NCBI GenBank assembly: GCA_027474245.1
Contig: CM049887.1
Span: 20,815,762-20,879,761, forward strand
Direction of reading: 5' to 3'
DNA: 64,000 bases
DNA from: Spheniscus humboldti
Lineage: Eukaryota
The translations under genes were made by a program, and so were the position numbers. The notes under the pieces are model-generated. The model saw only the letters and a program-made list of their open reading frames with translations. It had not been told where the DNA came from and made no database searches. Of this stretch, positions 1-32,524 are shown in pieces. The number at the start of each line of letters is the position of its first letter. The stretch's first letter is position 1.

Positions 1-1956
1 CAGCAGGGAAGAAGACTGGACTGGCTGAACAGAGGGCTTTGGCTGGAACTCAGGAAAAAAAGGAGAGTTTATGACCTTTGAAAGAAGGGGCAGGCCACTC
101 AGGAGGACTACAAGGATGTCGTGAGGTTATGCAGGGAGAAAATTAGAAGGGCCAAAGCCCAGCTAGAACTTAATCTGGCTACTGCCATAAAAGACAGTAA
201 AAGTAATAATAAATATATTAGCAAAGGAGGGCTAAGGAGACTCTCCATCCATTATTGGATGTGGAGGGAAACATAGTGGCAAAGGATGAGGAAAAGGCTG
301 AGGTACTTAATGCCTTCTTTGCCTCAGTCTTTAATAGTAAGACCAGTTGTTCTTGGGGTACCCAGTCCCCTGAGCTGGAAGACAGGGACAGGGAGCAGAA
401 TGAAGCCCCCATAATCCAAGGGGAAATGGTTAGCGACCTGCTACACCACTTAGACACACACACAAATCTATTGGGCTGGATGGGGTCTACCCAAGGGTAC
501 TGAGGGATCTGGTGGAAGTGCTCACCAAGCCACTTTCCATCATCTGTCAGCAGTCCTGGTTAATGGGGGAGGTCCAAGTTGACTGGAGGTTAACAAATGT
601 GATGCCCATCTACAAGGGCCGGAGGGAGGATCTGGGGAACTACAGGCCTTTCAGTCTGACCTTGGTGCTGGGGCAGGTTATGGAGCAGATCATCTTGGGT
701 GCCATCACGCAGCATGTACAGAACAACCAGGTGATCAGGCCTGGTCAGCATGGATCTACGAAAGGCAGGTCCTGCTTGGCTAAGCTGATCTCCTTCTATG
801 ACAAGGTGACCCGCCTAGTGGATGAGGGAAAGGCTGTGGATGTGGTCTACCTGGACTTCAGTAGGGCCTTTGACACCGTTTCCTACAGCATTTTCCTGGA
901 GAAGCTGGCAGCTCACGGCTTAGACAGGTGTACTCTGCGCTGGGTAAAAATCTGGCTGGATAACCGAGCCCAAAGAGTTGTGGTGAATGGAGTTAAATCC
1001 AGTTGGTGGCTGGTCACAAGTGCTGTTCCCCACCACCTGGGGAAGTTGGGGGCCAGTTCTGTTTAATATCTTTATCAATGATCTGGACAAGGGGATTGAG
1101 TGCACCCTCAGTAAGTTTGCAGACGACACCAAGTTGGGCGGGAGTGTTGATCTGCTCGAGGGTAGGAAGGCTCTGCAGAGGGACCTGGACAGGCTGGATC
1201 GATGGGCCAAGGCCAACTGTATGAGGTTCAACAAGGCCAAGTGCCGGGTCCTGCACTTCGGCCACAACAACCCCATGCAGCGCTACAGGCTTGGGGAAGA
1301 GTGGCTGGAAAGCTTCCCAGCGGAAAAGGACCTGGGGGTGTTGGTGGACGGCCAGCTGAATATGAGCCAGCAGTGTGCCCAGGCAGCCAAGAAGGCCAAT
1401 GGCATCCTGGCCTTTATCAGAAATAGTGTGGCCAGTAGGAGTAGGGAAGTGATCGTGCCCCTGTACTCAGCACTGGTGAGGCTGCACCTCAAATACTGTG
1501 TTCAGTTTTGGGCCCCTCACTACACGAAAAACGTTGAGGTGCTGGAGCGTGTCCAAAGAAGGGCAACGAAGCTGGTGAAAGGTCTGGAGAACAAGTCTTA
1601 TGAGGAGCGGCTGAGGGAACTGGGGTTGTTCAGCCTGGAGAAGAGGAGGCTGAGGGGAGACCTCATCGCTCTCTACAACTACCTGAAAGGAGGTTGTAGC
1701 GAGGTGGGTGTTGGTCTCTTCTCCCAAGTAACAAGCGATAGGAGGAGAGGAAATGGCCTCAAGTTGCGCAAGGGGAGGTTTAGACTGGATATTAGGAAAA
1801 CTTTCTTCACCGAAAGGGTTGTCAAACATTGGAACAGGCTGCCCAGGGAAGTGGTTGAGTCACCATCCCTGGAGGTATTTAAAAGACGTGTAGATGTGGT
1901 GCTTAGGGACATGGTTTAGTGGTGTACTTGGCAGTGTTAGGTTAACAGTTGGACTT
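1..1956 (+). mobile_element. CR1 LINE copy A (ORF2 RT and C-terminal region, 5' end beyond window start), with an intact CR1 3' UTR
   Basis: Translations 255-1919 match CR1 ORF2: WKKGQAT..., [67 protein letters not shown]. An ORF2 frameshift near 1040 ([15 protein letters not shown]) is shared with copy C. The canonical 3' end (gggacatggtttagtgg...gttggactt) is interrupted at 1956. Confidence 0.9.
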
Positions 1957-2777
1957 AGAATCACAGAATCATTAAGGTTGGAAAAGACCTCTAAGATCAT
2001 CGAGTCCAACCGTCAACCCAACACCACCATGCCCACTAAACCATGTCCCTAAGCACCACATCTATACGTCTTTTAAATTCTTCCAGGGATCGTGACTCCA
2101 CCACCTCCCTGGGCAGCCTGTTCCAATGTTTAACCACTCTTTCAGTAAAGAAATTTTTCCTCACATCCAATCTAAACCTCCCCTGGCACAACTTGAGGCC
2201 ATTTCCTCTCCTCCTATCGCTTGTTACTTGGGAGAAGAGACCGACACCCACCTCACTACAACCTCCTTTCAGGTAGTTGTAGAGAGCGATGAGGTCTCCC
2301 CTCAGCCTCCTTTTCTCCAGGCTAAACAACCCCAGTTCCCTCAGCCACTCCTCATAAGACTTGTTCTCCAGACCCTTCACCAGCCTCGTTGCCCTTCTCT
2401 GGACACGCTCCAGCACCTCAATGTCCTTCTTGTAGTGAGGGGCCCAAAACTGAACACAGTATTCGAGGTGCGGCCTCACCAGTGCTGAGTACAGGGGCAC
2501 GATCACTTCCCTACTCCTGCTGGCCACACTATTTCTGATAAAGGCCAGGATGCCATTGGCCTTCTTGGCCGCCTGGGCACACTGCCGGCTCATGTTCAGC
2601 CGGCTGTCAGCCAGCACCCCCAGGTCCTTTTCTGCCAGGCAGCTTTCCAGCCACTCTTCCCCAGGCCTGTAGCGCTGCATGGGGTTGTTGTGGCCGAAGT
2701 GCAGGACCCGGCACTTGGCCTTGTTGAATCTCATACAGTTGGCCTCGGCCCATCGATCCAGCCTGTCCAGGTCCCTC
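1957..2777 (-). mobile_element. CR1 LINE copy B, 5'-truncated and inverted, inserted into the 3' terminus of copy A
   Basis: The minus-strand ORF 2036-2734 (232 aa) is about 93% identical to the C-terminus of copy A/C ORF2. The + strand at 1957-2040 is the reverse complement of the CR1 3' end with its terminal ATTCTRTG repeats (agaatcacagaatcattaaggttggaaaagacc...). The 5' truncation point corresponds to copy A position about 1185. Confidence 0.85.
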
Positions 2778-2832
2778 TTGATGATCTTAAGGGTTTTTCC
2801 AACCTAAACATTTCTGTGATTCTATGATACAA
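2778..2832 (+). mobile_element. Displaced terminal ~55 bp of copy A's 3' UTR (tgatgatcttaagggtttttccaacc...ttctgtgattctatgat)
   Basis: This continues the canonical CR1 tail exactly where copy A breaks off at 1956 (canonical ...ggttggactt|gatgatcttagagg...). Confidence 0.7.
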
Positions 2833-4374
2833 ATATTTCATAACCGGTGCAGGTAAAAATTTTTTTTTCTTTGTAGGATACAATAAAAAAGGTTTGTGTT
2901 AAACAAGTAAACCCACAGAAAAAGTAAGTTGCTTTCATTAATATTGTTATCTGCTTTATTTTATTAATAACTTAAATGATTAAGTTTAAACATTTAAATA
3001 TAACATTTTTCTATTTACATGGAATGTTTGATGGTAAGTTGCATTATCAAGAAACTAGTTTAATTTCACCTTTCACTCTAATCTGTTGTTATCCTTAGGT
3101 AATATCATAGGGGAATAACTTTTAATTATTACACTCTTTTTCTTCACTAAATACTTCCTTTTGCTTCAGAAGCATTTCTGTTATTAAGGATTATATATAA
3201 ATTCCCAAGCCACAAAACTTAATGAGACCATGATCTTCATTTTTTTTTCAAAATCACTGCACTTAATATTTTAACCTTTCTTTGCATTTGCATTTTAAAT
3301 AAAATTTACAGTTACCTGAAACTGTGATGTTGCTGGTAAAGTAAGACTTCTTGGAAACTGCATATTATAATTTTACTCCCAGTAACATTTCTGCATACAA
3401 CCGTTCTCAATCAGAATAACAACCAATACAGGTAGCAGTAGCAGTAAATATGTCAAAACTTAATGCTATTCATATTTCCATATTAAAAACCATGAAAAGT
3501 GCTTTTCATGAGCATGTCCTAGTTTCTTCTCTGTTTTGTCTGCAAAGCAGGCACAAAACCACATCTGTTACAATTTTCTAAAGTTATATTTAATCTTGAA
3601 ATAGTTTTTCCTATTATTAACTTGCTTTTATTCAGTACAATTACTACTGGTTAGTAGAAATATTGTACTGATCAGCTAAAGATTTGATGCTATTTCTGCC
3701 ATATATCAGGAATAAATTAACAAGTTCATGCACTACACATCCAGTTGTAGAAAAGGTATTTAAAATGATAATACAATTTAATTATTAATGTTAAGGGAAA
3801 ATTCAACTGGAAAATATCAATAAAAATTGGAAAACACTTAAGAATAGTTACTGTGTAAGGATGGAGATCAGGTATCTCTATCTCACTCTTTCCAGCTTCA
3901 GGTTCTAGAGAGAGCAGCACAAAGACATCCAAGTTAGCTGCAATATTAGTATTATATTAATAACATAATATGTTTTTCTGGCTGCAGGCTGGTTCTTTCT
4001 GCAGATACTTTGAGGCTGTGCATGTGTATTGCATGTTTTATCCACAAGCGTCTTAAGGATAATGGAGAGGTGGCTGTAAATAGAAAATAATTGGTCATAT
4101 GGTATGCAAAGGATACACAGATTCATGGTACATTAATAATAATTGAGGTTAGGACTCAAAATAGTCAAGAATATTTATTAAAATGGGCCCATGTAACAAA
4201 AATGCTTTAAGACTGACAAATGCAAGGCTACACGTAGATGAAATGATAGCCCTACATATCTACATCTTGGGAGATTATATCCTGGAATACAACGACTACC
4301 AATAACCTGGGGTTTATTACTCACCCAGTGAGTCAACAACCTGGAATGAACAGCCTTTGTGATATTGTGATATT

Positions 4375-5691
4375 GCGGTTCATCTTGAGGGCGCTCACAA
4401 GGCATGAGCGGGACAACCAGGGGATCAAGCCCAGCCAGCACGGGTTCACGAGAGGCAGGTCCTGCTTGACCAACCTGATCTCCTTCTATGACAAGGTGAC
4501 CCGCCTAGTGGATGAGGGAAAGGCTGTGGATGTGGTCTACCTGGACTTCAGTAGGGCCTTTGACGCCGTTTCCCACAGCATTCTCCTGGAGAAGCTGGCA
4601 GCTCACGGCTTAGACAGGTGTACTCTGCGCTGGGTAAAAATCTGGCTGGATAACCGAGCCCAAAGAGTTGTGGTGAATGGAGTTAAATCCAGTTGGTGGC
4701 TGGTCACAAGCGCTGTTCCCCACCACCTGGGGAAGTTGGGGGCCAGTTCTGTTTAATATCTTTATCAATGATCTGGACAAGGGGATTGAGTGCACCCTCA
4801 GCAAGTTTGCAGACGACACCAAGTTGGGCGGGAGTGTTGATCTGCTGGAGGGTAGGAAGGCTCTGCAGAGGGACCTGGACAGGCTGGATCGATGGGCCAA
4901 GGCCAACTGTATGAGATTCAACAAGGCCAAGTGCCGGGTCCTGCACTTTGGCCACAACAACCCCATGCAGCGCTACAGGCTTGGGGAAGAGTGGCTGGAA
5001 AGCTTCCCAGCGGAAAAGGACCTGGGGGTGTTGGTGGACAGCCGGCTGAATATGAGCCAGCAGTGTGCCCAGGCGGCCAAGAAGGCCAATGGCATCCTGG
5101 CCTTTATCAGAAATAGTGTGGCCAGCAGGAGTAGGGAAGTGATCGTGCCCCTGTACTCAGCACTGGTGAGGCTGCACCTCAAATACTGTGTTCAGTTTTG
5201 GGCCCTTCACTACAAGAAGGACGTTGAGGTGCTGGAGCGTGTCCAGAGAAGGGCAACGAGGCTGGTGAGGGGTCTGGAGAACAAGTCTTATGAGGAGTGG
5301 CTGAGGGAACTGGGGTTGTTTAGCCTGGAGAAAAGGAGGCTCAGGGGAGACCTCATCGCTCTCTACAACTACCTGAAAGGAGGTTGTAGCGAGGTGGGGG
5401 TCGGTCTCTTCTCCCAGGTAACAAGCGATAGGACAAGAGGAAATGGCCTCAAGTTGTGCCAGGGGAGGTTTAGATTGGATGTGAGGAAAAATTTCTTTAC
5501 GGAGAGAGTGGTTAAACATTGGAACAGGCTGCCCAGGGAAGTTGTTGAGTCACCATCCCTGGAGGTATTTAAAAGACGTGTTGATGAGGCGCTTAGGGAC
5601 ATGGTTTAGTGGGCATGGTAGTGTTGGGTTGACGGTTGGACTTGATAATCTTAGAGGTTTTTTCCAACCTTAATGATTCTGTGATTCTATG
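4375..5691 (+). mobile_element. CR1 LINE copy C, 5'-truncated, in direct orientation to copy A
   Basis: The 142-aa and 310-aa ORFs are almost identical to copy A, including the same ORF2 frameshift. The 3' end is ...gttggacttgataatcttagaggttttttccaaccttaatgattctgtgattctatgatt. The first ~90 bp (4375-4470) are clearly more diverged from A than the rest. Confidence 0.9.
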
Positions 5692-6979
5692 ATTGTGGCA
5701 ATAATGGCTAGTACAGTCCAAAAATATACAAACCAAGAAGTAGTGAAGAGAGAAAATTATTTTACTTTGTTAGGCAAGACTGACTGCAATTGGCAAAATG
5801 CCAATCTGAAGACCTTAAAAAAAATAAAAAACAAACCAAAACATAAAAACCCCAACAACAACAAAAAAACCCCCAGCCTGAAGGCCACACACATTGACCT
5901 CTGTCTGCAAACTGGGAGGTGATTCCATGACATATGGTATCTTGTGTCTTTTATGTATCTTGTATTGTATGATTGCACGTATCAAATTGCTTTTTAATGT
6001 CATTACAGAAATAAATTAAGAAGCAAAGACTGGAAATTGAAGCTGAATAAGAAAAAAAAAAAGACATGCAGTTTTAGCAGTGAGGTTTGGAACAGTTAGC
6101 CAGGGAAAATGATGAACTTGCCTTCTCTGAAATCCAGTTTGGCTGTCTGTTATGAAGCCTTGCTTTAGAAAATAAAAAATCAGGTTAAATGAAGAGATAA
6201 TTGGCTAAATTGTTATGTAATGTGTTATAGAGGAGATCATGTCAAATGATCCTCTTGATTCCTTCTAACCTTTTAAACTATGAATACCCATAGTGAATCA
6301 GCATGGTTATTCTTTGGGTATCCCAGGGACAGAAACTAATTCAGTATTCTCCACTTTCATCCAAAGAGTTAAAAAGGACAGGAAACAGCTCCTTCTCATG
6401 GAGATGTCATGGTATGCAGATTAAATATCATCTTCCCTGGAGTGCCATTCAGGTTTTTTTTTCTTTTCCCTTATTTAGTGGATTTTCCGTGGATATGTCT
6501 ATTGAGATGCCATCTAGTATTGAACGCATACATAGTTGGACACATAAACTTAAAATAAAGGTAAATTAATTTCACTGTAACTATGTCTCTGCCTTGGCAG
6601 TTCTGCTGTGTATTTCAAATGGAACTTTTATCCTAGAAGACACTTGTGCCAGATCTGTCTGGCTTTGTGCAGTGTTCATTCTGCAAACAGCTTGGTCCTC
6701 TGTTTCTCTCAGATGAAACTTTCTGTTGTGCTTGAAGCCTTTCTGTTTTGGTTGTCTTCTTATTTAAAAATACATTCAGGAAAGTGAATGATATTTTAAA
6801 AAATGTAATATGTAAATAGAAACTGTACCTTGTAAAGTTTCTATAACCTTTTTGGCAAAAAGCTTTGGGACTACCCCTATTAAATCTGCTGTTGTCATTC
6901 CCTGTTCTCAGAATGTAAATAATATTCACTGTATTGTTATTAAATAAATATTTAAAAGCCTATTTTTCTCCTCTTCTAG

Positions 6980-7112
6980 AAAACAGACTGCAAGGCTGTA
7001 ATTAAGACTGTGGAGAACAGCTCCTTGGACGTTAGTGGTTTTGTTCTAGATATCTGGATTTCTCAGGTCTACCTACCTCGAATGTGGGTAGAGAAGCATC
7101 CCAACAAAATGA
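6980..7112 (+). CDS. PARP4: Candidate PARP4 coding exon (VIT-domain region?): ...SGFVLDIWISQVYLPRMWVEKHPNKM
   Basis: AG acceptor at 6978-6979 and a gtgagg donor at 7113. It is an open frame lying upstream of the vWA exons. Phase linkage to the next exon was not established. Confidence 0.4.
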
Positions 7113-8813
7113 GTGAGGTACTGCATAACTTGTACTGTTCATGAGGTAACACTGAATATGCTTAAACATAATAAACAGGAAGAGTTTAGTTTTGATGGGT
7201 AAAAGATGAAGAAAAATTTCACATCATGGACAGTGGTCAATTTGATCTGTTTTATTAAGCTGAGTATTCTCCAGAAATTAGTTTTCTTTTCAGTTGCATA
7301 GAATCTTGTTGCTTTTGTTTTATCCTTTGCCTTGTAAGAGGGTAAATGCTTCAACACAGTGTCCAATCGTTTCTGTTAAAACACTTTTTTCTAACTGTTG
7401 TGCTGTTGTTTGTATTTCATAGAAATGTGACTACAGTGTTTGATACAGATGTTGCATTTGCAGCAGTGGAAGTGAACAAATAAGTCATGGCTGAGGCTGG
7501 AACTAAGTAGCTTCAGAGTCATGCAATTGTTATACTAATTAAAAATAAGTAAAATTTTAAACCATTAAATTTGTAGGGCTGTATTTACAACTTACACATA
7601 TTTATAGAATCTGTCAGTGTTTTATTTTAAAGCATCTGGCCTTCCTAGATGATTTTGCATTCTGTTGTAGTTATTATTGCTGCAGTGATTATTCTCAAAG
7701 GCATTTGAATCTTTTCTTTTTCACTAATGAGTGAAAAAGACATAGCTAGCACTTCTAGCACTCTGGATCACCCAGAAACAGAATCCAGCTGTGGCTATGT
7801 CACAGAAGAGCTCATTATCACCACTAGAAAACATAAATAAAAGATTAGGTAGGAAAGGAAGGATCAGTACAACCCCTTTTACCTTAACCCACAGTAACTC
7901 CTTGCCTGAGACATATATTTAAAACTTAAAATATGTGATTCCAGGTTATTAGAAGCTGTTTCATCCTCCCACATTTTTTGTGAAGTCCCTGGCACTTTTA
8001 GTTATTTTCAGCTCTTTTTATTTTTTTTTTCTTAAATAAAGTAAAATGCTGCAGAGGTGAAATGTAAAGTCTCGGCGTTACAAATCTGTCAATCCAATTT
8101 TGAAATTGATTAAAATAAGTAAAATGACAGATAAGATTGTTTTCTTTCTAGCAATGATGTCTTTTATTTTTCTTCCTTTTAATCAGAGTTGCTTAGTTTA
8201 AATGTATTAGTTTAGGAATTTCTTTGCAGTCATTACTGCAATAATACTGATATTCCCCCAAGGAAAAGAGAAAGAAAGAGATTCCCATTTGTGTTTCCAA
8301 ACTGCAAACCTTTCCTTCCCTATTGGAAACACTTTCACTCCTTCAAGCATTTCATTGTTCCGCTTTTGAAAGCCTTTGTTTTTTATAGCATCTCTGTTCA
8401 TAGCAAGGACAGTATGCACTTCTGGTTTACTTTTTTTTTTTTTAATTCTATTACTTCTCACAAACTGATGGTGGCAATGATGATTGTAAAAGATGATATC
8501 TGTGATTTTTTCTTTTTTTTTTTTTAACTTGTAGAAGAGAATCCAGTGCTGTTTACAGAAGAGTGAATCAGATAGGAACATGAAACCACAAAATTCCTTT
8601 TCCAGTTTTTCATGTGAGACCTGGAATATAGGTAAAGGACAGGGAAGTTGCACTTTTCAGGCATTAAGAGTAAATGACATATATTTTTTAAAGCTTTGAA
8701 ATGTGGCTATATTTTGCTCTCATCCATAATAAGAAAAATGAAGATGCTTGGGTACACTCCTAACGAAATAGTATTTGTCCACTGTGCTGATGATTTTGTT
8801 TCTCCCTCTATAG

Positions 8814-9009
8814 GCTTGCATGCTTGTATTCCAACCAGAGTTTGAAACAGCATTTGAAGAAGAGCAGCTGTCCAGTGAAATTATTATTTTATTAGATTGC
8901 TCGAATTCTATGGCAGGTTCAGCTCTACACCAAGCAAAGCAGATTGCTTTACATGTTTTGGAACTATTTTGTTTCAGACAAAGAGTGAATGTAGTCAAAT
9001 TTGGCACAA
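8814..9009 (+). CDS. PARP4: PARP4 vWA-domain exon carrying the MIDAS motif: ...EIIILLDCSNSMAGSALHQAKQIALHVLE...VNVVKFGT
   Basis: Acceptor ctctatag| and donor |gtgagt. The DxSxS motif (DCSNS) is typical of vWA MIDAS sites. The exon ends in phase 1. Confidence 0.7.
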
Positions 9010-9247
9010 GTGAGTTTCTCTATTTCCTTTTTACCTAAGAGCCACCTTTTACCTTCTTGTCATGGCTTAATTTTATGTACATCATTATTATCAAACCAAC
9101 ATAATACACTGAACTGCAACCAGGAACGTGTAGCAGTATGAAATACTTCTACTCTGGTATTCCAGTCATAGAACTTAAACTTTTGTTTCCATATTGTTGC
9201 TACACGCTTAATATTTTAGTACTCTTCATATAAATCTTTATTAACAG

Positions 9248-9315: not shown

Positions 9316-10832
9316 GTAAGTAAATCAGTTTGGTTGTATTCTAAAGAAAGCTTCTTTGTATGGGATGCTTATCATTGCAAAACCCTGTTATGCAACTTTT
9401 TGTCTTTTTTTCTTTTTCTTTAGGCCAGCTTCTAAGTAATTTAGTCTATTTGAAGTCTGTTTTCCCTAGTACCAAGCACAGCCGCATCTGAATATTCATT
9501 CCAGTTTGGTTTTAAGCAATTACTTAAGTTGTTATTTTGAAGCTGAGTAGCTATCAATGTTAGAACATTTTTCAGTGTTTCCCCCTAAATTTATCTTTTG
9601 GAGTTTCGTATCTCTCATTGCCTGCTCACAGCAGAAAGAGAGGAAATGATTGACTTCCTTCTGGAAATCTATAATTTGTAAGTGAAGGCAGCACTTCGGC
9701 CAAAGGACTTTCAGCGGAAAGGAAAATGCTTTTGGCACCAAAAGATTGGATGTAGACTACTTAGGACAACAGGTTTTGGTTAGTACCTCATCTTGTCAGT
9801 GCCAGAAGTCAGCTTCTCATCTGTAACTAAAGCTCCTTGATGGTAGCATAATGCGTAAGATACTAATATAATGGATATCTTGAAAATGGGATGGTAAGAT
9901 CCAAATGTGATCAATGCAGAGTAACACAAAGGGAAAAACAACACTAACTATATCTGTACAATGTTGGGGTTTAACCCAGAAAAGAGATACTGGAGCCATT
10001 GTGAATAGTCCTTTTTAAATGGTAGCCCAATGTTCAGCAGCAGTCAGAAAGGTAAACACTTAGGTAGCTGTATAAATCTGTATTGCTGTGGCATCTTGAA
10101 TACTATATGCACTTCTGGTGACTCCATCTCACATTGAAGAGCTAGGGACACAGAAAACAAAGATGGCCAGATACATGGAAGACCATGTACAAGGAGAGGA
10201 CTCGTCCTGATTTTTTTTTTTTAGCCTCTGTTGAATCCTTACACAGTAATCTCTTTTTCAGGATAAACAGAGGAAAAGGGTAATAGGGATGGTTACTTGC
10301 TGTTTCTCACCACTTAAGGATCCCAGGACATCCAGCAAAATGATCGATTGGCAGATTTAAAATAAAAACCAAACAGTCCTTTTCATGCATAATAAATAGC
10401 AGAACTTCTTGTTGTGCTTGATGTTGAGGCTAAACTGTAATTCAATGCAGGAAGTGGGTTAGGCAAATTAAAAGTAAGAGCTGTAAATAGCTTTTAGATG
10501 CAATAGTCTGGAGGAAAACTCCAGTTCTAGAAGTCCTCAAACCACTGATTACTGAAAGCTCTGAAAACAATGTAGGAGTAGAATTTACCATTTTTCTTAT
10601 CTATTTTGCCTGTGCTTTTTGCCTAAGCCAGAAAAGATACAGGACTAGATGGATCTTAAGCTCTACCTTTCATAGTAATTATAGAAGAGAAGGAACAAAT
10701 AAAACTTAAGAATTAATTATTTATATTTGGAAACCAGGAGTCATATATAATGAAATAAAGATTAAATTATACATTATATGTTATTTTAGGAAAAAATAAA
10801 TTAAACTAAAATTGTAATACTTCACTTTTCAG

Positions 10833-11020
10833 TCTGCTACTGCAACATTGGGAAACACTGATTTATGGAAGATCTTACATTACTTAAGTCTGCTATTTCC
10901 TTCTCAAGGACACCGTAACATTCTTCTTATATCGGATGGACACATTCAGAATGAGAGTGTGACCTTCCAGATTGTGAAAGATAATGTCCAACATACGAGG
11001 TTATTTACATGTGGTGTTGG
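10833..11020 (+). CDS. PARP4: PARP4 vWA exon: SATATLGNTDLWKILHYLSLLFPSQGHRNILLISDGHIQNESVTFQIVKDNVQHTRLFTCGVG
   Basis: Acceptor cttttcag| and donor |gtaagt. It contains the vWA signature (ILLISDGH ... FTCGVG). The exon ends in phase 2. Confidence 0.75.
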
Positions 11021-11925
11021 GTAAGTACGAAGTTAGCTAGCAATTGCATTTGTTTACAATCACTGATAATTTATTTGAAGTGAGAGGTTAGTAAGCTGAG
11101 AACTGTCAGATGCCTGAGTGTACTGCCTTAAATATATATGTATGCTTAGATTAAATGCAGAAATGTTTGCCTACCTTTAATAACGGAATGGAAAATCTGT
11201 GAGGAATTTCAAAGGTAAGATGTCTACAATAACGTTAATTCCATGTCCAGGTAGTCTTACCTATTCATATCTTTCTTCATTATAACAACTACTCTATTTA
11301 AGAATATAATTGAAAAATACAAGAGTTAACGTTTTGAAATTTTGCATTTCATGTTTTGGTATAGTCTCATTTTAATAGTGCAATTTGAATGCAACATTAG
11401 TAGTTGTATAATTTTATTATTTAATTTTCATTTGTTTTGTAAGGTAATTACTTAAAGACAAAATAAGCACTAGACTTCTCAACGATCAGAGGAACACTGA
11501 AATTCATTGCAACGTAGTTTGTTTTCAGTAACAACAAACTAGAAAGATATGTACATGACTGAAACAACTTTTTACAAAAAAAAAAAAACAGGTTACAGTT
11601 ACCTATTTCAGGTTGCAAGGCTTAAATGGGAAAGGGTCAGGGAGGTGTTAGGTTCTTACCATATGCTGGGAGGGTTGGCAAGGATACATCAAAATAAAGA
11701 CCAGCGGTGAGGGTCATGTTCTTCTAGGTAGGACTGGTTTTTTTAATGACACCTTCCCCATAGCTCCTGCAACATTCCCCAGATCTCATGGCTGTGGGCC
11801 CTCTCCCAGCACTGGGCAAGCACACCCTTTAGGCCACGTACCAGACATCCCACTGCTCTTCCAAAGTAATCATTTGTTATGACTGTAATAGAATTTGCAT
11901 CAACACACAATAAAGAACAGATGGT

Positions 11926-12232
11926 ATGTGTCCATTAGCAGTACTGACACCATTTTCAGACAGGGCAAGGGGGAATGGCTTTAAACTAAAGGGTGGTAGA
12001 TTTAGACTAGATAGAAGGAAGAAATTTTTTTACGCTGAGGGTGGTGAAACACTGGCACAGGTTGCCCAGAGAGATGGTGGATGCCCCATCCCTGGAAACA
12101 TTCAAGGTCAGGTTGGATGGGGCTCTGAGCAACCTGATCTAGTTGAAGATGTCCCTGCCCATGGCAGGGGGGTTGGACTAGATGACCTTTAGAGGTCCCT
12201 TCCAACCCAAACTATTCTATGATTCTATGATA
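11926..12232 (+). mobile_element. CR1 3'-terminal fragment D
   Basis: ORF 11926-12192 reads RGNGFKLKGGRFRLDRRKKFF...GGCPIPGNIQGQVGWGSEQPDLVEDVPAHGRGVGLDDL, a CR1 ORF2 C-terminus. It ends in the CR1 microsatellite ctattctatgattctatgat. Confidence 0.8.
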
Positions 12233-13429
12233 TTTACATTCCTGTTATGTTCATGTTCAGCATACTTACATTCATTGATTATTGGTTATTGATATGATGG
12301 AACTAGGCCTGGCAATGGATTACCTCAGTGCTGGTAGTCAGAGGACATGGCTTTTAATGGTTCCTCTAGATCACTAACATTAATGTGCTAATGTGCAACA
12401 ATCTGCTTTCAGTAGGCAGGATCTGTATTTAACATGTTACATTGGTAAAGTAATAATGGTGAAGAGGTGTAAAAGAGTAGTTCACTCTGGTTCATACTCT
12501 TGTGTAGACAGAGTGTTTTCTAGAAGGCTGAATTAATAGAGAATACTACATCTGTTTTATCTGTGATAATTCTCTGTGGGTAAATGGAAAAAAAATTTAA
12601 ATAGTGCAAGATATGTACTTTACAGAGTTGTACAAGGCAGCAAAATCTATAAAAAGACTTTTAAAAGAGCAGTAAACTTTAAACCCAAGATGTTATGTGT
12701 TCTTAGCATAGATACAATTGTACTATTTAATTTTGCTTTGAGGGGTTTTAGTGAGGATTCACAAGGTCACTAAGACAGCGGTATGGTCCTGTTGAGGAAT
12801 AAGTCTACTTTCTGTCTGACAAAGAGTCGAGACACACTGTGCTGTTTCTTGCCCAAAAGAATTCTCATCTGCTTAAGTGTTCTCCTTTAATCCTCTAGAA
12901 AGCTGTCATTTGTATGTATACCTATGAAATAGCTTCACAGTAGTCAGACTGTTGGTGAGCAGAGCCTGCTGTTCTATCAGACTAGTAAGTGTTACCATAT
13001 TGGTTATATCTATGTTGTTCAGATAGTAACACTCCCTAGTGTCCCCAGGCACTGGACTTAGCTGTAAGATAGCTGTGTCCACGCTAAATAGCTCTGCTGA
13101 GGTTGAGGTTAATTAGTTCAAGATCAGGATCATTTTGATGCAATCTTACTGGTGTTTGAACCTAAGTTAATTTCTCTGCACAGCTGTGCACTGTGACATG
13201 TAAAAACTCATGTACCATGTAATTTCCTCGAGTGTTGTTATGAAATCTTAATACAGCAGCACATTCATTGACTCAGTTGCTTTCAGTTGGTCTGTCCCCT
13301 GAAAAAGGGATAGAATTTTTAAAATTCAGATTAAAAAAGCTTGCAATTCTAATTAAAAACAAAATATTTAAAAAGAGTATCGGATGAACAATTTAATTCA
13401 ATAATTACGTAAAGAATTTTTTTTGTTAG

Positions 13430-13529
13430 TTCCACAGCAAATCGACACATGCTGAGATCTTTGTCCCAATATGGTGCTGGAGCATTTGAATACTTTGACC
13501 CAAAATCAAAGTATAACTGGAAGGCAAAG
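13430..13529 (+). CDS. PARP4: PARP4 vWA exon: (G)STANRHMLRSLSQYGAGAFEYFDPKSKYNWKAK
   Basis: Phase 2 entry completes the Gly codon carried over from the previous exon. Donor |gtacat. Confidence 0.7.
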
Positions 13530-14802
13530 GTACATTTATAAATCTTGACTGTATTCAGTATGTGATCATTGTCTGATATATCAATATCTGATACTGCATA
13601 TCTTCAGTATCTCAAAATGGGAATTACTACTTTTCATGGGATCATGTGGCTTTGCTATTACAATAAGATCGTTCAGGAAACGTTTGATAGAAGGTGGAAG
13701 GAGAGATGCTTGTCTATTAAGCCTTCTTTATTTTAAATATAAATTGATACTAAGTGAGAAAGAGAAGTATTTAGTTTGAGTGTTGCAAAGGTGCCTTATT
13801 TTCAGCAGGAACACATGTATAGGAAGGGATATGAGAGCTGTAGAGAACCCTCAGTTCTTTGATAAGGGAGGGAATTTGTCACTGTAATTGCCCCACCTTC
13901 TCATTCAGATTGGTCACTGAACGTGTAAAAGAAAACAAGACAGCCATGACTTATTTTATTTTTTCTATTCTTTTTGAGAGAGCTCCTGTACTTTTCTTGG
14001 TAAGTGCAATAACACCAACTTGGAAAAAGTTTAAAAAATGTGAAACTATATAAATAATTGTCCCTGAATGGAAAAACATGACTTTACTTCTGTCATAGGT
14101 CACAGTCCATCTACATTGTCCTTGCTATAGTGATGAGGCCTGTAGCAATTGTATTGTGTAACTTTTGACTGTTGGTACATCTAGAAGTTTCAGGCAATCT
14201 AGGACCCCATTTGCAGTGCTTTTCAGTTTCCCTCTATAGTTATGTGTCTACAGCACTATCCTATGCCTTGAATCTGGTTCCTCCTGGAACAGTGACAGTA
14301 GAGAAGGTGCTGCAGCAAGGCTAGTATCTGGCACATTTTTGCCTGGGGGAATGGGTGAAAGCATAGATTTCTCCTCTTGCTATTCTGGCTGTCATTTGAA
14401 TGATATATGCAGAACTATCCAGAGCACGCCATGGAGATGTGCAGAACTGTTCGCATATCTCACAGTTCACATGTAGGAGATGGTGCTAAGTGTAGCAGTC
14501 CATATGCCCTAGCCTGTTTGGCAACCCTGATGGTTAGAAACTTTACTCTCAAATTTCAACTTTTACTTAAAAGAAGTCTCATTATTCCAGAAGCCAGTAC
14601 AACAATGGCTGAGTGATTCTCCTTATTACCTCCAAACATTAGACTAATTTTTACCAGTAATAGTATGTGACTTGTTTTAGTTGTTTAAAAAAAAAAATAG
14701 ATCCATTCACAAGGGAAATAGGTTATTTTCTATTGAGAGATTATGTTTTCTTTTGAAAGCCTACTAACAAACAGAGATAATTTGTTTTGCTTCTTTACAC
14801 AG

Positions 14803-14973
14803 ATACAGAGCCAGGTATCTAGAATATTTTCTCCAGGATGCAGTTCAGTTTCTATTAAATGGCAACAGTTTAATACAGGTGCACCAGAGCCAATGCACGC
14901 TCCCGCTCAAATACAGTCTTTATTTAACAATGAGAGACTTCTTGTCTATGGATTCATCCCTCACTGTACTCAG
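14803..14973 (+). CDS. PARP4: PARP4 exon: IQSQVSRIFSPGCSSVSIKWQQFNTGAPEPMHAPAQIQSLFNNERLLVYGFIPHCTQ
   Basis: Acceptor ctttacacag| and donor |gtaaag, phase 0 to 0. The sequence is typical of the post-vWA region of VIT/vWA proteins. Confidence 0.7.
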
Positions 14974-15373
14974 GTAAAGACTGGAATGGACATGCACTAC
15001 TGGGTAGAAATTCATATGTGAAACAACCACAAAGGAAATACTATATTGTATTATATGTGCTCTATGCAGCATGCACTTAGCTTCTTTTTCATTACTAAAT
15101 ATAATTAAGTTACTATTTAATTGTCATTATTAGTCTTCCCTCTAAGAAGTAGAGAGGATAAAATTACCTAATTTAATGTTCCTATCATTGTGCTTTGATA
15201 AATACAGGATTTCTTTACTTGTGACTGTCCCCTTGTTGTATGGGGAAATATATATAAACCTAGACATGCAAAGATTTACAGATTTGAGTTATATTTGGGA
15301 GACAGAACAGCATGCATGTGTGCTGGTAACATAGCATGAGAGAGGAGGAAACAGTATTTTTTTTTCCTTCTAG

Positions 15374-15454
15374 GCCACCTTAAGAGCTGTAATAAATGAC
15401 CAAGAACTACAGACTGTGGTGTCGACTACTGAACTACAGAAGACGACAGGAACA
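15374..15454 (+). CDS. PARP4: PARP4 exon: ATLRAVINDQELQTVVSTTELQKTTGT
   Basis: Acceptor ccttctag| and donor |gtgagt, phase 0. Confidence 0.55.
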
Positions 15455-17305
15455 GTGAGTTTGGCCAACATTATTCATACATGCCATAGTGAGACAAGCT
15501 GCTTCAAACAACTACGTGGTGCTTCATGCTCTTTTGAAGGAATTGAAATCCCTGTTTTCAGCAGGTCTTGCACTTTTATTTTTGCTTCTGATGTTTTAAC
15601 ACAGACCTTCAGTTTTCAGACTTTTAAAGAGAAACTGTTTTACATAGAAGTGATACCTTTCTCTGTGCTTTCTAACACAAAACTTAAGCTTCTCAGAATA
15701 GGAAGTGCTGCTTCTTATTTTGGCAGCCTGTTTGGGCTCTAGCTTTATTTTTAGGTTGGCTGTTCTTCAGGCGACCTCTGTGAGGAAGCTGCTGCAGCAT
15801 TCTCTTTCATGTTGTAAATTGTTGCTATGTGGAACATCTCATTGCTAGTCTGTCATCTCTAGAAATGTATGGAAAAAAAGAGACAGTAAAGTGTTACTAG
15901 CCTTTCCTCTGCTTCAGTAACAACGAAGTAAGGAGTCTTTATGCAGAGGAAAGCACAGAACCCATTTTGAAAAGGAAAACAAGCTAAAAAGAACCATTTA
16001 TTAAATCTAACAGATGTCTACACTCAAAAAATCAAAAGAATAGTCAACTTTCAGTAATAATTCTGATATGACTGTCACCCCTTCCCCACTAAGGGAAGCT
16101 GATTTGTTTTCAGACAGAAATTATTTTGTTCCCTATTTAGTGTAATCTACTTTGAAAGCTACTATCACAGGTTGGTTTCCATAAGGACAGTTGGTTTTCA
16201 GGGATGTGACCTTCTACAGGCAAATAAAATCGGCAAGCAGAAGCAATATATTTGCTTGCCATAATGAATTTTTGCTTTTAGAAAAATGCCTGTACTACAA
16301 ATTCCAGGTGCAGTTAAAAAAAAAAAAGAAAGTTTTGAAAGGTGTAAACTGAAATGGCAAAATGATAAAAAACAGGGTCAAAATTAGAAAAAAATATTAA
16401 TTCTTGATGCTTTAGATGAACTCTGAGAATTCCTATCTGTTTCTTTTGCCAATTTACCTTAGCTCAAAAGGTAACTATTTGCTTAAGAGGTTTTCTTCAG
16501 AACTGGCTCTCTTTGGCATCTGTCATATGCTTCCAAAAATGAGCCAGCAGGAATGTTTTGGCAATTGGAACTGGAATACCAGTTACCACATTGCCCCCAC
16601 AAAGCTCCCTCTCTTTGTTAGCTTTAACGTATTGAAGAGACCAAAATTGTTTTTCTTTTCTATGAAAGACTGGTTTAGTTCAGAAAAGTAATTTCTGGTT
16701 AGTACAGTTCAGTATTTCCCTTTTCTGCGTACAGCCCCTCAGGTCAAAAAATTACTTGATTATGGTAGACCTAGTGATTTTTTGAAGTTGAACACTCTAG
16801 ACTCACTTTACTTTTTCCCCAAATTCTGTATTTTTATGGACAGGATTAATTTACCTAACTTCACCTATATAGATATTGTTGGCTAAATCTGAGGTAGTGG
16901 TCCAGGCTCCATTTACAGTCACTGGAGAAAAATGTGTACGTCCAGAAGGGGCATTCTTCCTAACTGTTTTAGTTAGCCGTTTCAAGTTGGGATTAATTGC
17001 CTGGTGGAATTCTTCTGCTTGTTTGCATGCCTGCTTTTATTTCCTCACCCTTGACTCTAGAGAGAACGTACACAACAAGTAAAGACCTAGGTATTTTTTA
17101 GTTTGCTGAAATTAAGTGAAATAAAAATATACCTTAGGTGCAGGTTGTGATTGCTTTTCAAATGGAAAATTAGCTTGACCCTTCCTTAGAGAATGGGATT
17201 CTGTGTAAATATGGAAGCTAATTGCCTGAAGCTGTACCTCAGAAATGAAAGGAAGAATTAAAAAAAAAGTTACTACTTTTATCATCAGTTTAGTTTTCTT
17301 TCTAG

Positions 17306-17386
17306 GTGCTGCACAAACTCGCAGCAAGAGCTTTCAATAATGACTATGAAGATGGGATTCTTCATGAGAATGAAACAGAACATGAG
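17306..17386 (+). CDS. PARP4: PARP4 exon: VLHKLAARAFNNDYEDGILHENETEHE
   Basis: Acceptor tttctag| and donor |gtttga, 81 nt, phase 0. Confidence 0.5.
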
Positions 17387-18178
17387 GTTTGATAATCTGA
17401 AATAAAAAGTATACATTTAAAATGCTGAATAGCAAACATTTCAGTGGAATAGAGAAGATTTTCTTGCTTTGTTAAACATAACTAGAAGGTTGCAATTTTA
17501 ATATCATTTTAAGGTTAAAGTCACCATATAGTAATATCCTCCCAGATAAGATTTTGAAAAATTTTGGGACAGTCTTTTCTTCTTCACCACTATAAGAGTG
17601 TCCTCTATTGGCATAATGTGTGCGTATTTTTCCTAATCTATACCCTGTCACTGTAGGCCATTGGTGATTCTTCTTTTCTTGTGACGTATAACATTCTAGT
17701 TTCATGAGGATCAATACATATTAGTCCAGCGAAAGTCCATAGCTTTTGTATAGGATATGGTGGAAGATAATGACCTGTGTTTTACAGATAGACAGACTTA
17801 ATGACGTGATGATCTGTTAGAAAAATGTTTTTTAGCTAGTTAAAAACTTATATATTGCCATCTTGGCTTATTTGAGACTTCAGACTAATTCTTCTTATAA
17901 AATACAGCTTCTTACACTAGAAGAAGGATAGAACCAAAAGAAGTCTAACTAGAAGAAATGCATATCCCTGCCCAAAGTTGAGTGAGGGAGTAGAGAAAGT
18001 TAGAAGGGAGCAGACAGTTAGGCAGGCCAGTATATTCACATGAGCTCTTCCTTTCACATGTCCCTGTTTAGAGTGCATAAGTGTGTTTATAGGTACATGT
18101 TCAGTTTTGACATCAACGTTTCTTTTAGCTGATCCTATTTTTTCTACCTGTTCCATTTGTTAATACTTAACAATCTAG

Positions 18179-18274
18179 ATGAAGAAACAAATCTTGAAAA
18201 ACATGATTATTCACCTCAGCTTGGAGAACTCAATTATAAGCCAGTTTACAAGCTTCGTTGCAGTTGAGAAAAGG
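18179..18274 (+). CDS. PARP4: PARP4 exon: MKKQILKNMIIHLSLENSIISQFTSFVAVEKR
   Basis: Contains the conserved ...S.ISQFTSFVAVEKR motif of VIT/vWA-family proteins. Donor |gtatgt, phase 0. Confidence 0.7.
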
Positions 18275-19149
18275 GTATGTTTTCTATATAATATCTTGTT
18301 CCCACTAGCTTCTCTGTCAAAAGACTCTAAATTCTGTAACCTTGTACATATCAAAACTAGTCTTCCCTTTGCTGAACAATGATTGTTCTTTTACAATAGA
18401 GCTAAAACTATTATTTTTGACGTTATTTTGGTTTCTTCTGCAATATAGCAAGCTATTTTCCTTTTCTATCTCTTATATTGCTTGTCCTTCCTTTACAATC
18501 AAAGTTTGTCAATCTATGTGTTCCTGTTATGATTTGCTGCAAGGGTTTTTAATTCCTGATAGTGCTGTGGGAGCCAGACAGGTCAAAGGACAAGGCCAGA
18601 TGAAGAGTACTCTTCAATCCTTGGTGCATAAGCCACAGAACCCTTTCTCATAAAAAGTAAGGATGACAAACTATAGCAAACTGGCCACTTTAGCTATGGA
18701 TTGCTAAGTAATGGATTTTGTATTGGCAAAAGTCATTCTAGGGGAGTCTGTGTTAGGTGGAAGTCACAAGGAAAGCAAAACTTGAAAAATCACTCTTTAA
18801 TATTGCAGTAAACTATGGAACTTTTTCATTTGTTTTCAGTATTAGAACAGTGGTAGGAGAAACAAAAGCTTTGCAGCAAATGGAAAGAAACACATATAAA
18901 TGACAACCTTGAAATTCAAGGGTCAGTAAGAAGAGTTTTCAAATGGAAAGCTGTATCATGATAAGCAAGATGATATCAGTTGGATTAAGTATTAGATGGG
19001 GCACAGAGAATGGGAATTCATCTGACCAAGTACCTGTGTGTACATTTAGCAATAAATCAGTCACGTTTGCCTTCCTTTCATGGTCAATGGAAATAAATAG
19101 ATATTTTTAGAGCTTGATTCATCTCATCCTGAAGTTAAATACCTAAAAC

Positions 19150-20530
19150 AGTTCAGATTAATTTTCTTAAGAGGTCTTTTTCTCAGCACTGATTATAGGG
19201 GTACCTATAGTCACTATTTCGGATTCAAGGATCACTTCCTCCAAGCTCTAGAGCAGTCTATCCCAATGAACAGGAAGTCAGGCAAAAATGCCAGAAGGCC
19301 TGGTGTGAACATGGATGAACAAGGAACTCCTGGAAAAACTCAAACATAAAAAGGAAGTATCCTGACAGTGGAAGCAGGGACAGGTAACCTGGAAGGAATA
19401 TAAAGACACTATCTGAGCATGCAGGGACATCATTAGGAGAGCCAAAGTCTACATGGAGTGGGATCTGGAAGGGATGTCGAAGACAACACGAAGGGCTTCT
19501 GTAAGCATGTAAGTGGCAAAAGGAAGACTACGGAAAATGTAGGCCTGCTGCTGAATGGGGCAGGGGAACTGGTGACACAGGACATGGAAAAGGCTGAGGT
19601 ACTGAATGCCTTTGTTGCCTCAGTCTTTACTAGCAAAAGTGTCTTTACTTTTACCTTTGGAAATTCAAGGCTGCAGAGACCAGGGGGGAAGTTTAGAGCA
19701 AGGAAGATGCACCCTTGGTGGAAGAGGATCAGGTCAAGGAATACCTAAGCAAACTGGACATACATAAGTCTAGTGGGATGCACCCACAAGTGCTGAGGGA
19801 ACCGGCTGATGTCATTGCAAGGCCACTCTCAAAAATCTTTGAATGATCATGGTAATTGGGAGAAGTGCCTGAAGACTGGAGGAAAGCAAGTGTCACTCCT
19901 GTGTTCAGGAAGGGCAACAAGGAGGACCCAGGGAACTACAGGCTGGTCAGCCTCACCTTGATCCCTGGGAAGGTGGTGGAACAGCTAATCCTGGAAACCA
20001 TTTCCAGGCATACAAAGAATAAGAAAGTCATCAGAAGTAGCCAACACGGATTAACCATGGGGAAGTCATGCTTGACCAACTTGATAAACTTTGAAAATGA
20101 AGTGACTGATGTGGTAGATGAGGGGAGAGCAGTGGATATTGTCTGCCTGGACTTCAGTAAGGCTTTTGACACTGTCTCCCATATGATCCTCATACAGAAG
20201 CTGATGAAGTATGGGCTGGATGAGCAGACAGTGAGGTGGACTGAAAACTGGCTGAATGGCCAGGCCCAGTGGGTGGTGATCAGGGGCAGGAAGTCTAGTT
20301 GGAGGCCAGTGACTGTGTACCCCAGGGACCAATAGTGGGGCGTGTCCCTTTCAAAATCTTCATTAACGTTCTGGATGATGGGACAGAGTTGTACCTTCAG
20401 CAAGTTTGCTAATGATACAAAACTGGGAAGAGTGGCTGATATGCCAGAGGGTCATGCTGCCATCCAGAAGTACCTCGATAGGCTTGAGAAATGGGCTCAC
20501 AGGAACCTTGTGAAGTTCAAAAAAAGAGAA
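19150..20530 (+). mobile_element. CR1 LINE copy E (older subfamily), ORF2 RT region, 3'-truncated
   Basis: ORFs 19458-19748, 19856-20335 and 20342-20602 encode CR1 ORF2 sequence (...QDMEKAEVLNAFVASVFT..., PGNYRLVSLTLIPGKVVEQ, FSKAFDTVSH, FANDTKLG, LDRLEKWA). Homology stops abruptly after ...NLVKFKK at about 20525. Confidence 0.8.
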
Positions 20531-21767
20531 CTTTTACAGCTTTTTGCAGTGTCCAAAACAGTTCTTTATCATCACAATTTACTATTTCATATGGTATATT
20601 AATAAAAGTAGGCCTGAATGAAGAATTCAATGGATAAAACAAGGATACCTTTTCCTGATTTTACTGTTCGTCTTGATGTCTACATTATTATGAAAAAAAC
20701 AATACCAGCAGCATATGTACATTATAAGAGTTAGATTTTTCTGGAAATACTGCTTTCCTGAGTAATAACTCCAACATTTGCAATTAAAGATCAAAAGACA
20801 GACATGCATTCCAAAAAACATCTGATTAAAAAGCAACTATAAAATGCAATGCTGTGAAGTTATTAGAAATTCCCAGGTCAAGGACTGCTTTTCAAAGTAC
20901 GATAACTAAACTGAGTCAGTTTAAATATCTTTCTGTAATGCACCTGAATATTCCATCTGGTACTTGAGCAATATTCAGAAGAAAAAATATGTTGCAGATT
21001 AGCAAGGGAACACCTGTGTGATTTCATGAACTAGTTGTTTACGAAGGGTGTCAACAGATTATTATCTGTCATTCTGATTTTTATATATCTCTTTTTGCAA
21101 TTCTTCAAAAGATTCAGTTTCCCCTTGTCGATATGATGGCTCTCAACAAACAGACTTCTAGAATGTTATGTTTGAATTATGTCTGTAAATATAATAGCTT
21201 TAATATCATTTCTAGTCTAGGATGACTTTTTTGACCCAGTGGAACAAAACATGGCAGACATCTTAAGGCAAAAGCACCTGCACAACACAATGCAGTACCA
21301 TGCAGAAATACCCAAACTAGCCCATTCAGCTTGGCACTGTGTTATGCTATGTAATTTGTCTTCTTAACATGAGTTTGCAGAATGCAATGTATTTTAAGCA
21401 CATCTATAATAATGCTTATGTTTGCTTTCCTTTAAAAGGTGGCAATAGGATTCTGACAAAAAGAACTGCTCAAGATATGGATTTTATTTCAATTATGTGG
21501 ATTTGAACAAGTTATACATACAAATATATACTGTCCACCTTTATATTTCATGTGAATCTAATTACTGACAATACATTGTCCCTCAATATAATAAAAAATG
21601 TGAAGTTACATTTACTGGGCTTTTTGTATATATTGAGTATTTTTAATGTACTGTGTTATCTGCTTATTCCCCGTTTTCAACACATTTCAAACTTCAAAAG
21701 AAAAATGCACTGTTTCTATAATGCCAGAGGGTTTTCAGGTTCACAACTGTGATGCATTTTAATTTAG

Positions 21768-21958
21768 GATGCTAATAAAACTTGTTCTGCTGATGCTCCA
21801 AACATCCTGGAAATTATAGCTCAAGAAGATGTAGATTTTTTACCTTACATGGACTGGGACCAAAAGTCAATGGAATCTGGCTTCTTATTTTCAGAAGACA
21901 TTGCCTTTCAAGCTGCGATAACTACATTTAATATATGTTCTTATCGCCAATGTTTTTG
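21768..21958 (+). CDS. PARP4: Candidate PARP4 exon: DANKTCSADAPNILEIIAQEDVDFLPYMDWDQKSMESGFLFSEDIAFQAAITTFNICSYRQCF
   Basis: Acceptor taatttag| and a single open frame. The best donor |gtatat at 21959 leaves phase 2, which does not match the phase-0 start of the next recognised exon at 23316. Either the donor is mis-chosen or an exon is missing. Confidence 0.35.
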
Positions 21959-27301: not shown

Positions 27302-27410
27302 GATGGCTCTTGGAATCTCAGTCCACAGTTGGGAAAAATCTTGAAATTTGATGTTGATCATTTAATTTTAATTAACAGTTTCCTTATTAGAAAAGGCATT
27401 CAGTCACTTG
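27302..27410 (+). CDS. PARP4: PARP4 C-terminal (MVP-interaction region) exon: DGSWNLSPQLGKILKFDVDHLILINSFLIRKGIQSL(G)
   Basis: Acceptor ttccacag| and donor |gtaaat, 109 nt, ends in phase 1. It resembles the human PARP4 C-terminal region ...KQKGIQSLG... as I recall it. Confidence 0.7.
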
Positions 27411-32340: not shown

Positions 32341-32524
32341 CCATTGGCTGCCGCGGGCCGCCGCGCTGAGGGCACGAAGGCCTCCGGGCTCGGGGCCCCG
32401 CCCCCGCCCGTCATGGGCTGGCGGGGCGCCGATTGGCTGCGGCCGCCGCCTCGCTCCCTCCTCGGCCGGCGGTGGATGTCGCAGCCGCTTTTCACCGTTG
32501 TCGTTTGAAACTCGGCCCAAAATG
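32341..32524 (+). promoter_or_regulatory. MPHOSPH8: MPHOSPH8 core promoter module: two inverted CCAAT (ATTGG) NF-Y boxes at 32343-32347 and 32432-32436, an Sp1 GC box at 32392-32410, a CHR-like TTTGAA at 32504-32509, a uORF at 32476-32508, and a Kozak ATG at 32522
   Basis: Both boxes sit in a duplicated module ATTGGCTGC(C)GCGGCCGCCGC. The GC box is ggggccccgcccccgcccg. tcgTTTGAAactcggcccaaaATGgcg lies about 13 nt before the ATG. A small uORF ATG TCG CAG CCG CTT TTC ACC GTT GTC GTT TGA ends just before the main ATG. Confidence 0.5.

Follow-up and report, generated by a model that had tools for sequence, protein, structure and literature searches.

A CR1 retrotransposon (copy A) in the 64-kb stretch of DNA analysed here, hereafter the window, is interrupted within its own terminal hairpin by a second CR1 copy in the opposite orientation (copy B). 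The arrangement very probably reflects two independent insertions, at the same spot, by members of a single CR1 (LINE) family that was active recently, with B nested tail-to-tail in A. Since 3′ anchoring is a property of CR1 copies, A and B have the final ~780 nt of the element in common, and as the two copies face opposite directions, this shared part makes up an inverted repeat with 93% identity and a 45-nt loop.

Copies A, B and C and the tail of the interrupted element

The body of copy A occupies positions 1-1956 on the + strand and was recognized from RVT_1 matches, three-frame translation and bird reverse transcriptase (RT) proteins; its 5′ end and upstream flank lie beyond the start of the window. 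RVT_1 matched A in the open reading frames at 512-1066 and 987-1919 (E = 1.5e-12, above the cut-off, for one match and 7.4e-07 for the other), the weaker match scoring 29.5 bits, 0.1 bit below the cut-off, and the nearest database proteins to A were bird reverse transcriptases with 84-90% identity. Three-frame translation revealed several frameshifts in ORF2 of A, with the last 310 codons open up to the stop codon at 1917-1919. Beyond it, 1920-1956 form the left part of the 3′ UTR, which ends with the 5′ arm of the terminal hairpin (AGTTGGA) plus CTT at 1947-1956, as identified from the sequence and from an alignment of five CR1 tails. The initial annotation had placed the break in A at ...GTTGGACTT (1956), and this is the position found here; in the five-tail alignment, the break after T1956 falls between the outer and inner stems of the consensus hairpin.

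Copy B occupies 1957-2778 on the − strand and was delimited by its sequence, alignments and a tail motif scan as a 5′-truncated copy with a complete 3′ end. Read on the + strand, this 3′ end appears as AGAATCACAGAATCATT from 1957, which on the opposite strand reads AATGATTCTGTGATTCT, the microsatellite end typical of CR1. The microsatellite of B (ATTCTGTGATTCT) is located at 1957-1969, its hairpin at 1976-2011, its stop codon at 2036-2038 and its open C-terminal ORF2 segment at 2039-2776. The 5′ truncation at 2776-2778 (A-equivalent 1177) lies downstream of the RT domain, and the C-terminal ORF2 segment alone remains. A third 5′-truncated copy of the same young family, copy C, was detected by alignments and the tail scan at 4376-5700 on the + strand, outside the inverted repeat, and was used as the outgroup and reference for the comparison of A with B. 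Copy C begins at A-equivalent 690, and both B and C reach the tail, as expected of 3′-anchored, 5′-truncated copies.

CR1 elements are defined by a 3′ hairpin followed by an octamer microsatellite, 5′-ATTCTRTG-3′ (PMC8665684), and the hairpins and octamers of A, B and C match this published definition. The 3′ UTR hairpin upstream of the microsatellite is present, B and C folding into GGUUGGA/UCCAACC plus an inner stem, and the consensus hairpin over five tails contains 14 pairs, which are mostly invariant and show little covariation. Single-sequence fold z-scores of the hairpin were not significant, and an Rfam scan of 1-6000 at E <= 1 returned no family. The octamers read ATTTCTGTG ATTCTATG AT in A (2810-2828), ATTCTGTG ATTCT in B and ATTCTGTG ATTCTATG in C, with no poly(A).

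The rest of the tail of A, comprising the inner stem, TCCAACC (2798-2804) and the octamers, was located on the + strand at 2780-2828. The earlier description of a tail of ~55 bp resuming at 2778 was right in that the tail resumes after B, but its limits shift to a start at 2780 and an end at ~2828 rather than 2832, giving ~49 nt. A reconstituted copy A, in which 1..1956 was joined to 2780.., was aligned against the window and ran through the join without a break in both matches, with B over A positions 1177-2001 and with C (4380-5693) over A positions 690-2005. In the three-way alignment, GGTTGGACTT precedes the join and GATGATCTTAAGGGT-TTTTCCAACC... follows it, with no base lost or added. When the five window tails were aligned, the outer stem GGTTGGA/TCCAACC of the hairpin drew its 5′ arm from the left part of A and its 3′ arm from 2798-2804, and the substitutions private to A were unusually dense on both sides of the junction, which ties 2780-2828 to the left part of A as one element. 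Among the true tails in 21 motif matches from 203 kb of bird DNA, that of A is the CR1 tail that lacks a nearby 5′ arm and is split by another element. Since the alignment of A is unbroken once B is removed, the tail is assigned to A, which makes B a nested insertion. The initial annotation is thereby upheld in two respects: the ~50 nt beyond B are A's own continuation, as the unbroken alignment to B and C demonstrates, and B is an inverted, 5′-truncated CR1 nested in the 3′ hairpin of A, as borne out by the alignments and the five-tail hairpin.

At the 5′ junction of B, the sequence and the three-way alignment place a CTT at 2777-2779 that can be assigned to either side, with no target bases lost. 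This overlap may represent a target-site duplication of 1-3 nt from 1954-1956; alternatively, it may be due to microhomology with the first bases of B (AG). The junction overlap thus amounts to 0-3 nt, that is, no or minimal target-site duplication, and CR1 has been described as lacking target-site duplications (PMC2169234). The flank of B starts with A, as do about two-thirds of the inspected 3′ flanks, the boundaries being ambiguous by 1-3 nt.

Insertion site and origin of the nested copy

The anatomy agrees with ordinary target-primed reverse transcription (TPRT), and we infer the sequence of steps from this established model. Copy A would have come first, entering the probable PARP4 intron in sense orientation. 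Later, a CR1 endonuclease would have nicked the + strand between T1956 and G (GGACTT^GATGATC), a site that by chance lay between the outer and inner stems of the 3′ hairpin of A. The 3′-OH at T1956 would then have served as the primer for copying a second CR1 RNA, beginning at the microsatellite end of that RNA, and synthesis would have halted ~820 nt in, producing the usual 5′ truncation, with the 5′ end joined through the 0-3 nt overlap (CTT).

The initial annotation regarded B as inserted into the very structure recognized by the CR1 RT. The insertion site is indeed inside the 3′ hairpin of A, but nothing speaks for targeting, as one event among the ~17 CR1 tails inspected reveals no preference. 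A CR1 machinery with a preference for its own 3′ hairpin and microsatellite in DNA form, perhaps through an endonuclease/RT complex still bound to hairpin-shaped nucleic acid, would make tail-to-tail palindromes systematically; this explanation has only a slim chance of being correct. The nick for B, 3 nt past the 5′ stem arm of the hairpin of A, would suit it, as would an unrelated CR1 copy in Mycteria (L007, ~6880) that has GTCCAA just beyond its tail. However, the flank of the Mycteria copy contains no CR1 tail, its alignment score being at shuffle level, and the event at A is a single one, the tail of A alone being split by another element among ~17 CR1 tails in 203 kb. Moreover, the other 3′ flanks share no motif beyond the frequent initial A, and the primer end GGACTT shows neither microhomology nor complementarity to the tail of the B RNA. 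The CR1 RT is thought to recognize the hairpin in RNA, not in target DNA (PMC8665684), and in the TinT model no CR1 target preference is known or assumed (PMC2169234). If B is taken to have hit somewhere in the visible ~2 kb of A, the odds of its falling within the last 50 nt are a few percent, which is unremarkable for a case chosen post hoc. That CR1 integration favours the DNA image of its own 3′ hairpin/microsatellite, and that this locus is one footprint of such a preference, is very doubtful indeed.

It is highly improbable that 2780-2828 represents the tail of a third, extremely 5′-truncated CR1 that came to lie beside B by chance, with the tail of A itself lost. Very short 3′-anchored CR1 fragments do exist, as exemplified by a tail-like fragment at window position ~55448, but 2780-2828 starts exactly where the left part of A stops, with 0-3 nt repeated at most. 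It also supplies a 3′ stem arm matching the 5′ arm in the left part of A and has the same unusually high private divergence from B and C, and an extra, precise deletion of A's tail would have to be assumed.

The divergence among the three copies bears on where B came from. Over 822 aligned sites, pairwise identity was 92.6% for A-B, 93.7% for A-C and 95.3% for B-C, and B and C have in common a 3-nt deletion and many variants relative to A. At the amino-acid level, A and B were identical at 224 of 246 positions (91%), a measured value below the ~93% first estimated. A carries 37 private changes, against 23 for B and 14 for C. These counts would fit a host older than its guest, but their reading as an age order, A > B, is confounded by subfamily differences, and at a dN/dS of about 0.2 many of the changes pre-date insertion. 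dN/dS was 0.25 for A-B, 0.18 for A-C and 0.26 for B-C. Neutral decay was simulated under a transition bias of 4, with CpG sites mutating at a tenfold rate, and only runs free of stop codons were kept; the simulated dN/dS had its median at 0.67 and its lowest value at 0.36, and none of the 91 runs came down to 0.26. As the observed ratios lie below those of the neutral simulation, much of the divergence accumulated before insertion, while the source elements were functional and under purifying selection. The arms derive from different source elements, would already have been several percent apart at the arrival of B, and were probably never identical. B is an independent CR1 copy, not a copy of A.

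An inverted duplication or fold-back of A, twin priming of one RNA, or an assembly artefact, in place of two insertions, has a practically negligible probability: fold-back replication typically creates tail-to-tail palindromes when it goes wrong, as do certain errors in long-read assembly, and twin priming does yield inverted LINE segments, but the arms are 7% divergent, B resembles C, a copy 2 kb away, more than its own partner A, a dN/dS of ~0.25 reflects divergence under selection in source elements, the complete tail of B differs from that of A, the tail of A continues past B, the inverted and direct parts overlap here by 780 nt, against twin priming, and the window contains no Ns, against an assembly artefact. 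L1 twin priming derives the inverted and the direct segment from a single RNA, with essentially no overlap between them. The A/B pair resembles L1 twin-priming inversions in that an inverted LINE segment abuts a direct one; unlike them, its arms overlap over their full length, are 7% diverged and come from different sources, and host tail is present beyond the inverted copy.

Gene conversion between the arms was also considered and rejected. The A-B identity is below that of B-C, and the longest perfect run between the arms (64 bp) is close to the expectation at 7% random divergence, by estimate rather than computation.

Geometry and stability of the inverted repeat

A repeat finder detected an ungapped inverted repeat of 746 nt with 94% identity, with arms at 1177-1922 and 2033-2778. 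In the gapped alignment, the left arm (1177-1956, + strand, part of copy A) and the right arm (2003-2778, − strand, part of copy B) shared 723 matches, with 54 mismatches and 3 gap columns (one 3-nt indel), corresponding to 93.0% identity. The similarity seen in protein thus extends to the nucleotide level, where the arms are far from being much less alike; nevertheless, at ~7% divergence they are 93% identical rather than near-perfect. The gapped alignment leaves an unpaired centre of 45-46 nt (1957-2002), consisting of the hairpin and microsatellite of B, which have no partner in the arm of A because the counterpart in A was displaced to 2780-2828. Elements A and B do physically abut, as the initial annotation had it in describing essentially no spacer, but the complementary arms are 45-46 nt apart. 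The arm ends next to the centre are imperfect, the innermost ~34 bp containing 6-7 mismatches and the 3-nt indel.

In yeast Alu-repeat assays, lengthening the spacer from 12 to 20 bp reduced recombination ~40-fold, and from 12 to 100 bp ~300-fold; instability fell exponentially with divergence, and even one mismatch near the centre had a strong effect (PMC10164571). The A/B pair is similar to closely spaced inverted Alu repeats (Ait Saada et al. 2023, PMC10164571) in being composed of long inverted retroposon copies with a short spacer. Its arms (~780 nt, 93.0%) have the length and the identity, at least ~86%, of fragile quasi-palindromes, but its centre has neither the spacer of at most ~20 bp nor the perfect match that go with fragility, being 45-46 nt long and flanked by mismatches and an indel. 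It likewise differs from the highly fragile Alu constructs, which have a 12-nt spacer, by its 45-nt spacer, 7% divergence, and central mismatches and indel. The view of the locus as a spacerless, near-perfect palindrome is overstated, as a loop, divergence and central mismatches cut cruciform-driven instability by orders of magnitude in yeast. The features of an unusually dangerous palindrome, namely the absence of a spacer and perfect arms, are absent at A/B. Repeats like A/B can still interact in long single-stranded DNA and could in principle form a hairpin. As both copies carry substitutions acquired since insertion, the repeat appears to have been tolerated.

Genomic context, predicted RNA duplex and comparison with known systems

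Exons of the PARP4 VWA region were identified on the + strand at ~6483-6656, 6980-7162, 8814-9011 and 10836-11021, and onward to ~29940, so the PARP4 context proposed in the initial annotation is supported by VWA-region exons downstream of the repeat from ~6.5 kb. A further gene begins at ~32.7 kb, with a CpG island at 32-34 kb and chromodomain exons at 32732-32776 and 37524-37658. We take this gene to be MPHOSPH8, on the basis of its match to an MPHOSPH8 query sequence together with the Chromo and Ank domains of the neighbour gene in the fetched bird loci. As the repeat lies upstream of the + strand VWA exons of PARP4 and no upstream exons occur in the window, it is most likely located in a PARP4 intron, with A in sense and B in antisense orientation. 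The VIT-region residues of a PARP4 fragment from Geothlypis had no match in the window, which fits upstream exons outside the window. A human PARP4 N-terminus, an unverified query, produced no tblastn match in the window, a result that shows little alone.

When 1177-2778 was folded as RNA, the minimum-free-energy prediction was -1528 kcal/mol, with 738 of the 751 pairs formed between the arms and 1957-2002 placed in an apical loop with its own small stem. The expectation of dsRNA upon transcription is thus matched by folding, which predicts a long imperfect RNA duplex.

Exact-protein searches with the ORFs of A and B, an ORF from the unique flank (3905-4126) and one across the right junction (2731-2883) matched no record, and the 28-mer joining the tail of A to its flank had 0 matches in a metagenome scan. 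Orthologous loci were reached via PARP4 fragments, no full-length bird PARP4 protein having been returned. Those of Falco cherrug (L001), Geothlypis trichas (L002) and Sylvia borin (L006) align to the window from ~5877-5899 onward; upstream of window position ~5877, none of the three loci, nor the Logan contig L003, gave an alignment, even at word size 7. Neither an empty-site nor an A-only allele was found among the aligned bird loci. In Falco, no A/B/C-like CR1 was present within 7 kb upstream of the conserved block, and in Geothlypis, the preceding VIT exon is separated from the conserved block by ~330 nt without an A/B/C-like CR1. These comparisons hint that the CR1 cluster is specific to the lineage of the window. 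In relatives, the locus could be useful as a marker scored for presence or absence, with empty, A and A+B as its three ordered states.

Two sets of candidates from Mycteria were set aside. None of the Mycteria CR1 proteins was an orthologue of A, B or C (best match 91%), and Mycteria 'proteins' with two CR1 matches, examined as possible nested copies, proved to be separate copies 1-4 kb apart that had been joined by gene models.

Neighbouring inverted CR1 copies are the main substrate of ADAR hyper-editing in chicken (Porath et al. 2017, PMC5625713), where inverted CR1 pairs dominate because CR1 copies are 3′-anchored. The A/B pair is like these substrates in consisting of two opposite, 3′-anchored CR1 copies that would share one inferred transcription unit and are predicted to pair. 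It differs from them in the length of its arms, ~780 nt versus the typical 334-nt CR1 fragment, and in its loop of only 45 nt. The pair would be a likely ADAR-editing hotspot in PARP4 pre-mRNA.

As CR1 fragments make up about 12% of the 64-kb window, the landing of a new copy in an old one is to be expected. Nested CR1-in-CR1 insertions are abundant, with 1,978 cases between different subtypes in chicken (Kriegs et al. 2007, PMC2169234) and 6,752-9,100 cases in each of the crocodilian genomes (Suh et al. 2014, PMC4316615), and the nested-insertion (TinT) method has been used across birds (PMC8665684). The nested A/B pair is an ordinary member of this well-known class, involving known biology throughout and no new mechanism; it provides a clean example of a nested CR1 and matters little beyond annotation. 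In agreement with TinT cases, a host CR1 is split by a 3′-complete, 5′-truncated CR1, host sequence is present on both sides, and target-site duplication is absent or minimal. Unlike in the chicken TinT set, host and guest belong to the same young family, and such cases were discarded there as uninformative (PMC2169234). The pair also departs from the usual TinT arrangement in that B is inverted and lies in the terminal hairpin of its host, which results in a close inverted repeat.

A third copy of the young CR1 family

A further CR1 copy, C, lies on the plus strand at 4376-5700, 1.6 kb downstream of B, the inverted copy nested within CR1 copy A. Like B it is 5′-truncated, and it belongs to the same young family as A and B. 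As C is bounded by flanks of its own and shows 95.3% identity to B and 93.7% to A, it is an independent insertion. A stretch of 5.7 kb in one intron, most likely of PARP4, holds three young CR1 copies (A, B, and C).

The final 246 codons of ORF2 are open in all three copies (A, 1179-1916; B, 2039-2776; C, approximately 4867-5604), and dN/dS among them was 0.18-0.26, far under the values from neutral simulation (median 0.67, minimum 0.36). The three are more similar to one another than to any of 120 retrieved bird RT proteins, the best of which reached 91%. The family diversified under selection and was recently active in the lineage of the window.

Older CR1 fragments and CR1-derived gene models

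Older CR1 fragments are located on the plus strand at 11920-12232, 19552-20581, 35252-35765, and 55448, and on the minus strand at 50424-51496 and 61138-61521. Their identity to A is only 65-70%; those with a retained tail carry the same hairpin and octamer as A, B, and C. Together with the three young copies, they bring the CR1 share of the window to approximately 12%.

Two 'hypothetical proteins' of the wood stork Mycteria americana (P0050 and P0001) are annotation artefacts, each gene model splicing two separate CR1 fragments that sit within introns of genuine genes (6017-6876 and 10891-11238 in locus L007; 5975-6607 and 7639-8725 in locus L008). Such models in this assembly inflate the number of RT-like proteins in databases.

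PARP4 and MPHOSPH8 in the window and in other birds

No counterpart of the region 2833-5876, of which 1.5 kb is AT-rich and not CR1, is present in the falcon and passerine loci, and an A/C-rich low-complexity tract (approximately 5830-5899) adjoins the start of the alignment to these loci on its upstream side. Within the PARP4 region, a 325-codon open frame on the plus strand (23250-24224) generated no Pfam match and resembled nothing among the retrieved PARP4 fragments; it could represent a large PARP4 exon that evolves rapidly, or else be open by chance. Further downstream, a CpG island (32000-34000; GC 57%, CpG observed/expected 0.91) carries the start of the MPHOSPH8 coding sequence, an acidic exon rich in alanine, together with the chromodomain of this gene; the exons concerned lie on the plus strand at 32732-32776 and 37524-37658. 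The fetched passerine loci keep the gene order CENPJ(-) PARP4(+) MPHOSPH8(+).

Comparison with Falco cherrug over 13370-17549 and 20873-26056 revealed that the falcon lacks a 4.2-kb block in which four PARP4 exons lie, as well as the greater part of a further 5 kb, and that PARP4 is annotated there only as a 138-aa 'PARP4-like' protein. In the passerines Geothlypis trichas and Sylvia borin, approximately 18 kb (window positions ~9743-28033) is absent, with most of the VWA-to-C-terminal PARP4 exons, and the PARP4 annotations there are 'LOW QUALITY' proteins, 344 and 232 aa long. From these alignments, PARP4 looks eroded in the falcon and both passerines, and this erosion may represent lineage-specific loss of the vault PARP.
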